Counted from the first letter of the stretch, positions 5,709 to 23,784 are shown. The stretch is DNA of 64,000 bases from Rhizodiscina lignyota (GCA_010015805.1 ML978124.1:1-64000), one strand, 5' to 3'. The notes: a model not told the origin generated them from the letters alone. Numbers and translations: made by a program.

Positions 5709-7586
5709 TTAGGCCTCATTCCTCTCTGCGTGCAGCACCTCCAACCATTTCCTAGGGAATATCTTGATCACGAACAGTAGCTCAATCGGGCCTAGATATT
5801 GGCCTCGGCTAATCTCACGCACTTGGCCGCACAGCACAGAAACCCAGTGATTTGGCAGAAGAAAGGAGCCGGCCGTATGTTTTGCGCCGGTATCAGTGGA
5901 CAACTGACCTTTCTCTGTTGCGCGAAAACAACCTGACAAGGACGGTTGGGACATCCAGCGCCTTTCGTGGATTTGTTTCTGGACCCAGAGATCAATCGAG
6001 AGGACTTCCTTTCCCGATTCCGAAAATGTTACACGACCACAGGTTTCCTGGCCCCATCGTACAGTCCAGCCAATCACTTGGCGCTCGTCAGAGGTCCTGT
6101 CAGTCACATATATAGTGTTGACATCCTCAACTCTGATCGAATCAGTCCGGCTAACGTCGTATTTACACGATAGGGATAAGCTAGTAAGCGCAGTTGGGAA
6201 ACGAATGTCTGGAGCAGGTTCTCCAAGCAGGATGGTGCGAGCAGTTGGGGGAAGGTCATCCAGGATGATGAATTGGTCAACATGGATTCGTTTCAGTTCT
6301 GCACCTCGGACGTACAAAAGAATCCCCAGGTAGTTCTGTGGGCGGCGGCCTCTCATTGCGGACTTCGACTTCAACTCCGACGACTCTGTTTCCATGTGGC
6401 AGTTCAAGGCCATTACACAAAGATTCTTGAAGTTCACGCTGACTCTGAAGCAGTAGGCTTTAACCTGTAGGCCTCTGTTCGTGACTGTAAACGGCTTGTC
6501 CATTGCCATCAGGAAATGATTTCTGAACTGAGAAGGTCGAACCATTGCTGACATTTTGAAGTCCCTGGGAGATTTCGCCAATGGCACATGGCTATAGGAG
6601 GGCGTTAATTCAAAATCTCGCCGCCAAGCAAGAATGGACATGTCGTTTGATATTTTCATGATTTCTTCTTGTAGACGATGGAATGCTTGCGTGCCTTCGC
6701 CATAGAGCATTGGCATATTAACAGCGAAAATACCCATAAGGCAGTAGGCCATATCCTCGGAGCGTGAAGTTTCACGTTGTGATGCCCATGACATCCGTTG
6801 CGCGATGCTTCGCTCATGTATGTGGCGAGAGTCTGAAAGAGCATCGCTATCGATTCCGGTAATCCGCTGCAGGATAGCCGTAAGGGTGTATTTAGTACCA
6901 ATCTTCTTCCAGCCTCCAGTGAAAAAGACCACGTGCTTTGGTGCAATCAACTCTTGCAGGGTCCACCCTCTCGTGAACCAGCGAGACTTTGCAAATTCTG
7001 AATTTTCGATTGCAAACGAGTCGACATTGATTTGGGTATGAGAGTCAAAATCTTCATTCGAATCGATGCCGTCATCCAAGTCAATATCGTCATCTGAGTT
7101 GATATCGTCATCTGAGTTGATATCGTCATCTGAGTAGACACCATCATCAGGGTCGACATTGTCTTCAGAGTCGACATCGACATCCATATCGGCATTCAAA
7201 TTGGAGACCGAATCAGAAAAGGAGGCCGACTCGAATAAGGGGTCGACATTGACGACGTCGGAAAGATACGCATAGCATACCTCTGATCTCTGGTACCATC
7301 TGAACATCGAGTTGAGCGCTTCTTGGAGTTCTGCGCTACTGCTTTTATCTATGCAGCAGGTATCGATCCAGCAATACTCTAAGCCATCGTCGCGAGCCTG
7401 ATCACACACAAATTTCACCTTGATGAATGAAGCCTTCAAAGCTGCTTGCTGAGGTCCCATGGCCATATCCTGAAATAGAATTTCATCTTCAGGTGCGCCC
7501 CACGTGTGCGATAGAATCGCATACGGTGGAGGATCATCAGACGAGACGTTTTCAAGCTTGAGCGAGGCTGTATGCAAAAGGCGCAT
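5709..7586 (-). CDS. HET-domain (heterokaryon incompatibility) protein with acidic repeat insertion
   Basis: MRLL...PPYAILSHTWG, WIDTCCIDKSSSAEL, NSMFRWY, SRWFTRGWTLQELIAP, SIAQRMSWASQRETSR-ED-AYCLMGIF-VNMPMLYGEG: canonical HET-E-type N-terminal HET motifs. No NACHT or WD40 domain follows. Confidence 0.93.
   Translation of the reverse strand: MRLLHTASLKLENVSSDDPPPYAILSHTWGAPEDEILFQDMAMGPQQAALKASFIKVKFVCDQARDDGLEYCWIDTCCIDKSSSAELQEALNSMFRWYQRSEVCYAYLSDVVNVDPLFESASFSDSVSNLNADMDVDVDSEDNVDPDDGVYSDDDINSDDDINSDDDIDLDDGIDSNEDFDSHTQINVDSFAIENSEFAKSRWFTRGWTLQELIAPKHVVFFTGGWKKIGTKYTLTAILQRITGIDSDALSDSRHIHERSIAQRMSWASQRETSRSEDMAYCLMGIFAVNMPMLYGEGTQAFHRLQEEIMKISNDMSILAWRRDFELTPSYSHVPLAKSPRDFKMSAMVRPSQFRNHFLMAMDKPFTVTNRGLQVKAYCFRVSVNFKNLCVMALNCHMETESSELKSKSAMRGRRPQNYLGILLYVRGAELKRIHVDQFIILDDLPPTARTILLGEPAPDIRFPTALTSLSLSCKYDVSRTDSIRVEDVNTIYVTDRTSDERQVIGWTVRWGQETCGRVTFSESGKEVLSIDLWVQKQIHERRWMSQPSLSGCFRATEKGQLSTDTGAKHTAGSFLLPNHWVSVLCGQVREISRGQYLGPIELLFVIKIFPRKWLEVLHAERNEA
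7045..7195 (-). repeat. 18-bp tandem repeat inside the HET CDS, encoding [IV][DN]SDDD-like hexapeptides
   Basis: atatcgtcatctgagttg at 7084-7101 and 7102-7119, a partial copy at 7120-7135, and degenerate units on both sides. Confidence 0.9.
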
Positions 7587-20240: not shown

Positions 20241-21827
20241 CGCATTTACGCGTAGAACGGCGCTTTGATAAATTAGAGATTATGGTCTACATGGCTGAGG
20301 CTCCGACGATGGATAAAATGTCGTAGACACTAGTAAGTCTTCCTAATTGCAACGTGTGAGAGCATTGGCAGAGCGCTGAACTGATATATGCTGGAGCGTA
20401 TTTATGCGTAAGACCGGACTTTGAGGAATTGGACATACCTTATACAAAGAGACAGAACAGGTGGTCACTAGCAGAGCACCCAAAACGACACAGCTCTGCT
20501 CGCTTCTTCCAGATACATAGAATTTCTTGAAATCTCCCAACTTAAGCCCTTAACAGTAAGCTTAAACAGCCTCTCATCTTCGCCTAGAATCCACAGGAAT
20601 GTGAAGTGAATTTAGAAAGCGTCCGTTGGCTTGCAATGCCAATAGCAAGTCTAGGCCCATCGTCGGCTTAACTGCCGAATGGTCGATAGGCATGCAATGT
20701 GAGCCAGTCATTGGATCCGGGGTTGGTCGCAGGGGTCGTTGACGAGTTAAATTACAGTACAATTACTGCTCTCCGCCTCCTTATTCCTCTGTAAATTACG
20801 TCTAGAAAACACGGCTTCAGACCAATGAATGCCTCAAATCCTACCGGGCCGGGCCGTGCCCCGATTACTTGTGTGCGCCTTGACGCGCTAGTGGCTTTAA
20901 GAACGGTTCAGTCATGTACTTTAGACCACGCAATCATATAATACACAATATCACCGTCACCCTCTCTTAGAACCCCTGCTCTCAGCGAGCGCGCGGGCGG
21001 AGTGATTAGAGCTCCGGAAGTGGGCAGCGGTGGTAAGTGGGTAGCGTTGGTAATGGGGAGCAAGCCAGAAAGTGAGATCCAAAGGACTGGTGCGGCTAAG
21101 GAGCCGAAGCCTGAAGGGTCCTTAGTCCCTGCAGATGTTCACTTCTCAGCCAGCCAACTATTGGACTCGCGGACAAGACTCCGAAAGAGATCGACTCCGC
21201 GCAGATTTAGCTCCTCTACGGCGAATTGCAAAATCGGACGCCGCCATGACGTCACCAAGCTGATGCAGAGAAACCTGCTTGGGGTACGCCCTCTTAAGCA
21301 CTCAGACGCCTTTCCACTGTACAGATCCAAACCATGCCTGCGCGGGGTCCAATCGACGAGCGCGTACTACCTCTCTCATCTACGACAGGCTTAACATGAA
21401 TTATTGAATGTCTGTACAAGATGACAGCTACGTTACGGAGTAGCAACCACCTGATCCTAGAAAGAAAAGAGCTCTCACCTGAGACACTGCAGGCCGTGTC
21501 TTGAGCTAGTGAGTACTGCGTCGTATCTGAGGGCTTTCATGCGGCTACAGGGTCCCTCAGTCGCTTCGTCTCCCCTACGCCGTCCACTCGTTGTAGAGTA
21601 AAACTTGATTCTCACCACGCGTCCCAAAATGATTGTGACGCCCTGACGCCTCTTGAGGCACGGAGGGGCCTCCGTCATCTGCTTCACTCACTAGAAATAC
21701 TCGGCTACGTACTGACCATCGCTCATAACCCGAATTTTAACGCACGCTTTCAAAGTTCATCAATTTTCCCTCGTTCTGCAAAACGTCTCCCCCACACAAT
21801 ATCAAAAGGGTCGATTCTTTCGTCTTC

Positions 21828-22301
21828 ATGGCTGATTCGAACAGGTAGGCCTACAATTTTCCTTCCCTGCCCTTTCCTGGCTCCGAACTAACTGCCTCCA
21901 TTGCAGAAGCACCGATGTGCAGGGCGATTCGACAAGCACAAACGACGCCGTCAATAATGTAACCAAGACGAGGCCCAGAAAAATATCCGGGGCCCTCCAA
22001 AGACAAACAATTGAGGAACCCGATGACGAAAATGACGACGACATACTAGCAACAATGGGCCCCACCCGAAACCCGGCGTCGCGCCGCCGCATAGTGCCGG
22101 TACACCAGTCACGCATTTCAGACAGACCCCCAAAGGTCGGTGAGAAGGACAGCAGTTTAAAGATCAAGATCGAGCTGGATCTGGAAGTCGAGGTAGAGAT
22201 TTACGCGCGCGTCAAGGGCGATGTGACCATTGGGTTGATGTAGTGCCCAGGTCGAGATCTACGCACGAGTCAAAGGCGACGTCACCATTGGTTTATTGTG
22301 A
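21828..22301 (+). CDS. Small fungal protein with C-terminal LKIKIELDLEVEVEIYARVKGDVTIGL motif and two alternative C-termini
   Basis: Exon 1 MADSNR (21828-21844); intron 21845-21906 (GTAGGC...CTAAC...CAG); exon 2 ends at TAG 22241-22243, or at TGA 22299-22301 if 22193-22250 is spliced. The tail resembles the LRLDLNLDVEVxLKARIHGD-T-LL motif of small ascomycete proteins. Confidence 0.8.
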
Positions 22302-23069
22302 GATGTGAGTCGGACCTCGTTCGCCAGTCCTATCTTAGTAATATAAGAATAGTACGACTTAGCTCACTCTCAAAGCTCCTCTATGGCATCACAGCAATGC
22401 ATGTCTACTCTTGTTGTACTCGCGCCGATTTTCACCCGCCTGTGTATCTGTGGTTTGGAGCTGAAGGGTGCCAGGATGGGGGAAAGGGTCTTCGCAATGT
22501 ATCTAGTCCTTCATAACAGTAATTGAGGGAGTTTCTTCCGCAAGTGCACGACAAAGCACCAGTTCACTCAAAAGGATGAACAATTATCTAACACTTGGGA
22601 CTTTGGATCCTGCATAGACTGGCGCTATAAAATCTTAAATTGAGCTGCTGGAAACGAACTTCGCTCTGTTAAAATGGGTGCGCCTTCAACCATGATATCC
22701 GGCAAGCTGAGAAAACGTAATGCAAGGCTGGAAACTGGATTCGCCCCCAGCTCCCCGGTTCTCCATCTCTAGTCTTCCCGAAACGGAGTAGCGCATCTGA
22801 GCGGCCCCGCTATTTAGCGTCGACGAGAAAGAAAGAGGACCGCGACTTTGCGATCGAGCAGCTGAGTCTAGACTCTACATACTTCCAGCTACAAATCGCT
22901 TAATATACCAATCTTCGCAGAACATTGATCTTCCACTCTCCTCGACACCAAATTGATAAACAGAATATCTCGAGCTCTGATCCTGAGCTTACGGCCACGG
23001 CCTGGACAGTTGTCGGTCCCTTCGCGTTTCGCCCTCTGCCTGCGCTGGCGATCACCCAAGGAAAAAAAT

Positions 23070-23784
23070 ATGGTCCTCGGTATTTTAACTTCTATAGCAG
23101 CCTGCCCCGCGATCATTGGCACCACTGAGGCTGTCCGTCAGGGTCAAAAGACGAGCGCCAAAGAGAAGCACAGAGGTCTCAAGTCGAACCTGTTCGTTTC
23201 GTGCTCCACGACCACGCGAAGTGGCAGAGAAGTAAACGGCAGCGAAGTAGTCCTGCAGAACAATAAGGTGCGTTGTTCTCACAAAGCCTACTCTAAGCGA
23301 GCAGTTCGCTCGTCTTTAGATCCTGATAGCGACAATCCTGCAGCTGTACCTTTCGACGCCTTCGCCCGACTTCCCAGACGGGAGCGAAGGCGACCATCCT
23401 TTCGCAGGCTATTTCCTTCCCTACCCAGATCAGAACTGGGGCCGTCTGGGGGAGGGCTTCGTCTCCACCATCTCCGACGAACCGCCCCAGCTCAACTGGA
23501 TATATGTGGACGAGGATACCCACGAAGTCAAATATGGAAATCGAGAAGAGTCCGAACCTCACGTCATTGGGCCGTGGGATTGCACACCGGTGGATAAGAG
23601 GGTCACGCTAGAGGGCTGGGAAGGCTTTTTGGCTGTCAGAGATGCGCCGGGGGAATGGGCGCTTTATTTTGACAGAGATGATGATGGCTTAAAAGAAATT
23701 GTCTCTCATAGTAAGCGAAAGGTAGAAGTCGAATTAATACGAAAGGAGAGGAGACAGCGCAAACCGAAGCCAGAGGATGATTGA
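23070..23784 (+). CDS. Conserved uncharacterised ascomycete protein (MVLGILTSIAACPAIIG... family), 2 exons
   Basis: Exons 23070-23267 and 23344-23784 give HPFAGYFLPYP, GFVSTISDEPPQLNWIYVDEDTHEVKYG, GPWDCT, LEGWEGFLAV and WALYFDRDDDGL. Confidence 0.8.

Follow-up and report, generated by a model that had tools for sequence, protein, structure and literature searches.

A gene tail and its stop codon encoded twice in Rhizodiscina lignyota: a probable ancient, retention-proof terminal intron

The window analysed here is a stretch of 64,000 nucleotides from the Dothideomycete Rhizodiscina lignyota (GCA_010015805.1 ML978124.1:1-64000), and our subject is a small gene on its + strand whose last 16 codons and stop codon are present twice in tandem. 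The first copy of this tail lies within a candidate intron, and removal of that intron would join the body of the gene to the second copy. Read with the candidate intron kept (the retained form), the gene product has 117 amino acids and no assigned function, and it is identical (100% over the query) to the deposited 'hypothetical protein NA57DRAFT_73787 [Rhizodiscina lignyota]' (P0001). The features of the gene are listed below, with a vertical bar marking splice boundaries.

21828..21844, + strand: exon 1, with its ATG at 21828; five codons and two bases, which joined to exon 2 give MADSNR..., the start of P0001; covered by an identical metatranscriptome contig.
21845..21906, + strand: intron 1, 62 nt, GTAGGC...CTAAC...TGCAG; skipped with GT..AG ends in an RNA contig (X1), whose joint at 21841/21904 becomes 21844/21907 when the cut is moved by +3.
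21907..22192, + strand: exon 2, the common coding part, ending ...KIKIELDLEVE; the C-terminal half is near-invariant in 25 aligned homologues.
22193..22250, + strand: candidate intron 2, 58 nt, phase 0, GAG|GTAGAG...CCCAG|GT; contains tail copy 1 and is coding when retained.
22193..22243, + strand: tail copy 1, VEIYARVKGDVTIGLM and a TAG stop (22241-22243); the ending of the deposited model P0001.
22235..22239, + strand: TTGAT branch-like motif, with its A at 22238; made by the Leu-Met codons of copy 1, a putative branch point.
22244..22250, + strand: non-coding spacer tgcccag, ending in the acceptor CAG.
22251..22301, + strand: tail copy 2 (exon 3), VEIYARVKGDVTIGLL and a TGA stop (22299-22301).
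22305..22352, + strand: probable intron in the 3' untranslated region (3'UTR), 48 nt, GTGAGT...TAGTAAT...ATAG|TAC; starts 3 nt after the copy-2 stop; predicted from sequence.

A repeat finder locates the two copies as a 51-nt direct repeat, 80% identical and spaced 58 nt apart. That the same C-terminal peptide is encoded twice on either side of a 7-nt spacer had been claimed in a preliminary description of this DNA, and the claim holds, as does its count of differences: by the Nei-Gojobori method (S = 11.8 and N = 36.2 sites) the 16 sense codons of the copies differ by nine synonymous changes and one conservative non-synonymous change, and the stop codon is TAG in copy 1 and TGA in copy 2. The probability that at least nine of ten random differences would be synonymous is 2.6e-5. 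The 58-nt phase-0 unit proposed there was also recovered. It has GT at its 5' end and AG at its 3' end, as in spliceosomal GT-AG introns, its length is comparable to that of the RNA-confirmed intron 1 of the same gene, and its splice signals are conserved in the 40 loci described below. The A of the TTGAT motif lies 12 nt before the last intron base (22250), where the preliminary description had placed it.

To see the locus in its wider context, related loci were collected by scanning metagenome contigs with the family alignment, which gave 390 pattern matches, of which 93 were confirmed and the best 80 were classified. Two intact tails are found in 57 of these 80 loci, so that the double tail is indeed conserved in related loci, the subject of a check that the preliminary description had proposed for orthologues. 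Copy 1 always ends in ...GLM and a stop, and copy 2 always in ...GLL and a stop. There are also eight loci in which both tails are present with extra introns inside (L060 and L070-L076), one in which copy 2 has two amino-acid changes (L025), seven with a single GLM tail and no copy 2, three with a single GLL tail (L068, L077, L078) and two of a paralogue (L079, L080). The double-tail loci comprise 41 distinct sequences including the window, and the counts of selection and splice signals given below use 40 of them, as the boundaries differ in L034/L035, which were omitted. Across the 41 distinct sequences the unit, measured from copy start to copy start, is 50-91 nt long; it is a multiple of three in only nine and not in the other 32.

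Comparison with named proteins by blastx shows where the double tail occurs. Among the Dothideomycetes, double-tail loci are 96-100% identical to Alternaria proteins, 100% identical to Aureobasidium pullulans and 97-99% identical to Cenococcum; among the Leotiomycetes, they are 94% identical to Hyaloscypha and 90% to Pseudogymnoascus. Some have their nearest match in Exophiala (Eurotiomycetes) at 54-70%, and some in Nemania (Sordariomycetes) at 69-73%, the latter being the least certain placement. By these placements the double tail is common to Dothideomycetes, Eurotiomycetes and Leotiomycetes, all within leotiomyceta, and is probably also present in Sordariomycetes. Since it is spread over classes of leotiomyceta and the synonymous sites between its copies are saturated, we regard the double tail as an old and stable state, and not as a young or accidental duplication. 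The preliminary description had also suggested an intron birth caught mid-way, and for the same two reasons this idea does not stand.

Over the 40 distinct loci, the ratio of the proportions of non-synonymous and synonymous differences (pN/pS) is 0.065 for the 16 codons upstream of the tail, 0.082 for copy 1 and 0.067 for copy 2, with synonymous differences near saturation (pS 0.65-0.70). Judged from these codon comparisons, both copies are under purifying selection as strong as that on the upstream exon, as the preliminary description had argued from the window alone, and copy 2 is not decaying neutrally. The frame of exon 2 runs on into copy 1 in every locus, with a stop at codon 17 each time. 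Copy 2 can lie in any of the three frames relative to copy 1, and is therefore readable only after splicing; readthrough of the first stop codon into copy 2 was considered and ruled out, as the frames differ. Gene conversion as the cause of the likeness of the copies was likewise rejected, since pS is 0.79 between the copies of one locus against 0.82 between loci, and the share of identical synonymous codons is 0.42 within loci against 0.375 between them. At the median locus, 9 of the 16 codons differ synonymously between its two copies. As the synonymous divergence within a locus is about as large as that between loci, the duplication is old and bears no sign of recent gene conversion.

Superimposed on this coding pattern are the signals expected of an intron. 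The first Val codon is GTA in copy 1 of all 40 loci but in copy 2 of only two (Fisher 1.6e-20), where GTC, GTT, GTG or GTA is used. In the five distinct single-tail GLM sequences that lack copy 2, the same codon is GTG, GTG, GTA, GTG and GTT. From this codon usage we conclude that the GTA constraint on the Val codon accompanies the presence of the intron. The last three nucleotides before copy 2 are TAG in 28 loci and CAG in 12 (YAG in 40/40). At the other end of copy 1, a Leu codon CTG, TTG or TTA is followed by ATG in 40/40, giving YTRATG. About half of the distinct sequences have a spacer of only 5-8 nt, in which no other branch candidate was seen by eye; loci with longer spacers often have an extra TAAC or TAAT just past the copy-1 stop. 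That the Met codon creates a branch-like site, as had been noticed in the window, agrees with this pattern, in that the motif is the only one of YTRAT type in the short-spacer loci. It is plausible from the sequences that the Met codon of copy 1 serves a branch site. The Met ending persists also in single-tail lineages.

Natural variants of the locus show the same unit in other states. In L069, copy 1 has an in-frame TGA and copy 2 is intact; as copy 1 is broken there, GTAGAG must act as a donor in this locus. In L042, an ordinary non-coding intron (gtaatt...aacag) stands at exactly the site of the tail intron. L060 has one more intron (gtcaag|gtacgt...aaatag|ggtgac), which interrupts copy 2 and leaves its frame intact. 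The boundaries of the intron in L034/L035 are displaced by 8 nt and read TT|GTATGC...TAG|G, so that the donor comes from Leu-Tyr-Ala codons, the unit is 50 nt long, only 13 codons and the stop are duplicated and the Val codon is GTC; the product still ends in ...VDLYARVKGDVTIGLL. Each copy in L070-L076 contains a nested intron, in phase 1 and at the same position in both, and the frame and the stop are kept (...YARIKG|DV.IGL(M/L) and a stop). These nested introns, at about 1650-1900 in those loci, begin AAGGGTG|gtaagt.. and AAGGGTG|gtgagt.., are 57 and 50 nt long and are not alignable with each other. They could have come from an intron already present in the duplicated unit, from gene conversion or from a second duplication.

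RNA data bear on both introns of the gene. A contig from a wood-decay metatranscriptome (X1) matches 21739-22131 of the window without a difference, save that precisely the 62 nt of intron 1 are missing from it, which shows that the gene is transcribed and that intron 1 is real. For the tail intron, evidence that retained and spliced transcripts coexist and make near-identical proteins, as the preliminary description had predicted, comes from relatives, where both forms are found and only the last residue differs. Two Cenococcum open reading frames from unannotated Logan contigs, P0348 (...GLL) and P0350 (...GLM), are identical over 115 residues except for the last. Both begin MGDVQEQ, and raw genomic reading frames begin VQEQ. 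In the genomic locus L007, MGDVQEQ can be the start only once intron 1 (ATGGG|gtaagt...cgacag|AGACGTG), with its in-frame stop, has been taken out, and P0348 and P0350 must therefore come from transcript-type contigs. L007 and L009, which are near-identical to Cenococcum, carry a 58-nt double-tail unit like that of the window. On these sequences, P0348 is the form with the tail intron removed and P0350 the form with it retained.

Deposited isoforms tell a similar story. In Phialophora macrospora, the gene PV04_05359 has two records, KIW69484.1 (GLM) and the 'variant' KIW69485.1 (GLL), which differ in the last residue only. In Cladophialophora immunda, CLAIMM_15016 has deposited isoforms with GLM and with GLL; according to the annotation procedure described in part of the source paper (PMC5595782), six RNA-seq runs were assembled with Trinity and Cufflinks and merged with PASA, and we infer that the two isoforms derive from those assemblies. 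In Alternaria, Pyrenophora teres, Hyaloscypha variabilis and Pseudogymnoascus, either ending is found, depending on the pipeline or the strain. The double tail confuses gene predictors. An Aureobasidium model (P0033) has a chimaeric tail that joins part of copy 1 to copy 2 (..KGDVEIYARVKGDVTIGLL), and a Plenodomus model (P0028) continues past GLL.

The protein itself belongs to a family that is conserved in Dikarya. Its C-terminal half, which runs from RRIVPVHQSRIxDRPx through KVGEKDSSL and the end of exon 2 to VEIYARVKGDVTIGL-M/L, hardly varies among the 25 homologues aligned. Proteins of the Basidiomycota Cryptococcus and Cutaneotrichosporon end in ...LDLDVEVHLTARIKGDITIGLL, and the second, single-tailed Aureobasidium paralogue (L079, L080) also ends in GLL. 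As GLL is found in Basidiomycota and in paralogues, it is the ancestral ending, so that the final Leu came first and the Met that closes copy 1 is derived. Single GLL tails are seen in DNA in L077, L078, L079 and L080; for Basidiomycota the single tail is known from proteins alone. Endings in M, L and I are all present in the wider family. The tail motif ...LDLDVEVHLTARIKGDITIGLL defines an unnamed family (P0281, P0282, P0285, P0286, P0260, P0272) that lies outside any Pfam model.

Searches with the protein and with the surrounding DNA returned little else. Pfam gave no family at or near threshold for seven members of the protein family, and a protein atlas matched only unnamed Ascomycota clusters, with no named look-alike. 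AlphaFold2 with the 25-sequence alignment gave a mean predicted local distance difference test score (pLDDT) of 57, no secondary structure and no confident fold. There was no Rfam match in 21000-23200, the predicted RNA fold of 22150-22360 is not unusual (z = -1.3), and Tandem Repeats Finder (TRF) found no repeat similar to the double tail elsewhere in the window. It did not escape us that the window has two short tandem repeats of other kinds, one at 21018-21061 (17-nt unit, 2.6 copies, about 770 nt upstream of the gene) and one at 7072-7176 (18/36-nt unit, about 3-5 copies).

Taken together, we consider it probable, at about three chances in four, that the double tail is an ancient tandem-duplication intron that is kept as a retention-proof ('fail-safe') terminal intron with dual translation, rather than a transient stage. 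That fail-safe operation is the reason for its upkeep is less certain. In an ancestor of leotiomyceta, the last 16 codons and the stop codon would have been tandemly duplicated with AG|GT at both ends, and the upstream copy together with a short spacer would have become a GT..AG intron, some 56-90 nt in length. The marks of an intron born by duplication of an AGGT-containing segment are found here: the intron's 5' part and the beginning of the next exon are homologous, AG|GT stands at both boundaries, and the outgroup loci L077, L078, L079 and L080 have one tail and no such intron in their DNA. Moreover, splicing restores GLL, the ending of Basidiomycota and paralogues, and retained and spliced forms of one gene are seen in relatives (P0348/P0350 and KIW69484.1/KIW69485.1). 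The AG|GT-bounded tandem duplication put forward in the preliminary description thus still appears to be the obvious origin. We infer that the intron is also spliced in R. lignyota.

How the arrangement could have persisted is suggested by the double duty of its signals. The consensus of donor sites is GTRAGT. The donor GAG|GTAGAN must also encode Val-Glu/Asp, and therefore cannot approach this consensus and would be forced to stay weak. The branch signal of the short-spacer genes would be the YTRAT that comes from the Leu-Met codons. With a donor kept weak by its coding role and a branch signal of this kind, splicing is probably incomplete. When the intron is retained, translation would run through copy 1 to its own stop (...GLM); when it is removed, exon 2 would be joined in phase 0 to copy 2 (...GLL), and the two mRNAs would give the same protein but for the last residue. 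As both mRNAs would be made and translated, selection would keep both copies coding, and the coding constraint on copy 1 would in turn keep the donor weak, so that the arrangement would be self-stabilising. The stop codon is part of what was duplicated, and for this reason an unspliced mRNA codes for a complete protein at any unit length. In a few lineages the arrangement has been resolved one way or the other, into a plain intron (L042, L069) or by the loss of copy 2 (seven loci), and most have stayed dual.

Several observations weigh against this interpretation and bear on the alternatives to it. No 22192/22251 junction was seen in R. lignyota, where the sole identical RNA contig breaks off at 22131, 61 nt before the candidate intron. 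The 87 contigs of relatives in a further run (X2) also include none with a listed 22192/22251 joint at the 88% identity threshold used for the contigs, at which a spliced contig, being only about 80% like copy 1, could escape as a joint. One X2 contig is continuous over 22166-22278, and represents either the unspliced form in an RNA library or possibly carry-over of DNA. The deposited R. lignyota model P0001 is the retained form, and both GTAGAG as a donor and TTGAT are weak signals. GLM endings are in excess among homologues: the best 120 of 618 have 105 GLM, 12 GLL and 3 other endings, and the best 120 of 562 in a Leotiomycete search have 95, 9 and 16, these tallies being mixtures of genomic and transcript contigs, many of them raw genomic reading frames, and not isoform ratios. 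In the Leotiomycete set, 92 of the 120 are without an NCBI name, and the 23 of these with a full-length MS./MAD start comprise 17 GLM, 4 GLL and 2 other endings. L068, with a poly(A) run at its end and one GLL tail only, had been considered as proof of splicing and was dropped, as its closest relative, P0138, is a raw genomic reading frame that ends directly in GLL; judging from these sequences, the L068 lineage may have lost the intron. The P. macrospora isoform records are presumably derived from RNA assemblies, an assumption of ours, and for C. immunda the derivation is no firmer than stated above. Finally, a separate use for the spliced form could explain the YAG conserved in 40/40 equally well.

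The absence of a junction, the GLM ending of the deposited model and the seven loci that lost copy 2 could also be taken to mean that the unit is never spliced in R. lignyota and that copy 2 is a relic or an unrelated element of the 3'UTR. We find this very unlikely, because copy 2 of the window is intact, with its reading frame, stop and CAG acceptor, because copy 2 across loci has the low pN/pS of a coding sequence in frames that only splicing makes readable, and because the extra intron inside copy 2 of L060 keeps the frame. The opposite extreme, in which the intron is spliced constitutively and copy 1 is never translated but conserved for a non-coding reason, would agree with the plain introns of L069 and L042. 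It is highly improbable in view of the codon-position pattern of copy 1, with its pN/pS of 0.082, its constant frame and its stop at codon 17; copy 1 of L070-L076 also keeps frame and stop across a nested intron, and Cenococcum has GLM transcripts from which intron 1 is removed. An assembly artefact, in which haplotypes or paralogues were merged, had been raised in the preliminary description. It is a general possibility, and the sole DNA run that contains the whole stretch may be the source itself. However, the double tail recurs in 57 of 80 independently assembled loci, with lineage-specific spacers, and an artefact is hardly credible.

More serious, and still doubtful, is the possibility that the same anatomy is kept as a regulatory switch, that is, as a selected and ancient post-transcriptional device in which a free choice of splicing tunes the fate of the mRNA or makes Met and Leu proteoforms with different function, never truncating the protein. 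The fate so tuned may be sensitivity to nonsense-mediated decay (NMD), the content of the 3'UTR or export. Of 47 distinct downstream regions, 28 have a GTRAGT at a distance of 2-16 nt past the copy-2 stop; in all but one of these (27 of 28) a complete intron of 47-69 nt, with donor, branch site and acceptor, can be modelled. With this 3'UTR intron spliced, the stop of the retained form would lie 61 nt upstream of the last junction and that of the spliced form 3 nt. According to the relevant passages of one paper (PMC6173133), NMD can be elicited by a junction that lies 50 nt or more downstream of a stop, and in Neurospora crassa the exon junction complex has a part in this decay. A switch would thus be favoured by the conserved predicted intron directly after copy 2, by the distance from stop 1 to its donor, which is 58-88 nt in all, by M in 40/40 of copy 1 and L in 40/40 of copy 2 even though one base change interconverts them, and by the acceptor YAG kept in non-coding sequence in 40/40. 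These points are offset in that the 3'UTR intron is predicted from sequence alone, a copy 51 nt long leaves almost no room for a distance below 58 nt, the Leotiomycete loci are without a GTRAGT close behind the stop, single-tail lineages exist, so that the device is dispensable, and the wider family has all of the M, L and I endings. We still favour the retention-proof intron over a switch.

Two further observations concern the region downstream of the copy-2 coding sequence. In the Leotiomycete loci L050, L053, L057, L059, L058, L063, L051 and L064, a strong donor CT|GTGAGT or CT|GTGAGA/G, as seen by eye, overlaps the last Leu codon and the stop, followed by a motif like CTGAT/TTGAT, a YAG and then A+TGA, A+TAA or A+TAG. 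Splicing there would again give an ending in ...L and a stop, a second design with the same protein either way; the products of L046/L047 would end in LR and a stop, and those of L066/L067 in LRP and a stop (all by eye). The principle of such a device may recur at the gene end in Leotiomycetes, with a donor overlapping the last Leu codon and stop and a next exon that supplies A and a stop. In the window, an open frame of 57 codons runs from the predicted 3'UTR-intron acceptor (22353-22526) and would be in frame if exon 3 were skipped. Its counterparts in L005 and L007 close after about 10 codons as judged by eye, and the open frame is probably due to chance.

The arrangement resembles several known systems and is identical to none of those we compared. 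Intron gain through the tandem genomic duplication of a stretch of exon containing AGGT is a known route, as set out in the parts of two papers that treat it (Hellsten et al. 2011, PMC3265369; Yenerall & Zhou 2012, PMC3443670), and retention of the resulting intron, for a time or for good, is an alternative that such a duplication leaves open, as noted in a passage of a third (Lehmann et al. 2010, PMC2891723). The expectation in the same passages is that the copy inside the intron decays or that NMD disposes of the unspliced mRNA (PMC3265369, PMC3443670, PMC2891723). As in those introns, the intron here starts with a copy of the next exon, its junctions are AG|GT and splicing restores the ancestral coding sequence. 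In contrast to them, the stop codon is duplicated too, so that retention gives a complete protein whatever the unit length, and the intronic copy is undecayed and, across several fungal classes, coding under purifying selection.

Exitrons are introns inside coding exons that are coding when retained; they are internal, their length is typically divisible by three, and splicing them out deletes part of the protein. As with exitrons, the retained form here is translated through the intron and both forms coexist, but the 58-nt unit carries a stop codon and splicing swaps the tail and stop for equivalent ones. Mutually exclusive duplicated exons also consist of two adjacent homologous coding segments, of which one is used in the protein, as one of our two copies would be; unlike them, copy 1 lacks a separate acceptor and runs on directly from exon 2, and the products are practically identical. 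In fungi, alternative C-termini can arise by alternative splicing or readthrough, as in cryptic peroxisomal targeting signals. There, too, a terminal choice of splicing sets which C-terminus is made, but those systems add a different signal, whereas here the same 16 residues are supplied and GLM/GLL is not of the peroxisomal targeting signal type 1 (PTS1). In the open literature searched, with supplements and non-open papers outside its scope, we found no case of a stop-inclusive duplicated tail that is coding in both copies, and the motif words of the protein were not found in the open literature searched either.

We would like to point out that most of what is known of introns born by tandem duplication comes from a small number of cases that were inferred or reconstructed. 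The loci described here form a natural series of states, namely dual-coding, plain intron, intron lost, copy 2 lost, slid boundaries and nested introns, in which the birth, fixation and loss of introns can be studied. They also provide a clear case of selection acting on what is translated from a retained intron. For annotation, the locus carries a warning, as pipelines pick either ending of the same gene. As the protein stays the same whichever form is made, the double tail would be a simple system in which to ask whether the choice of splicing regulates the gene.

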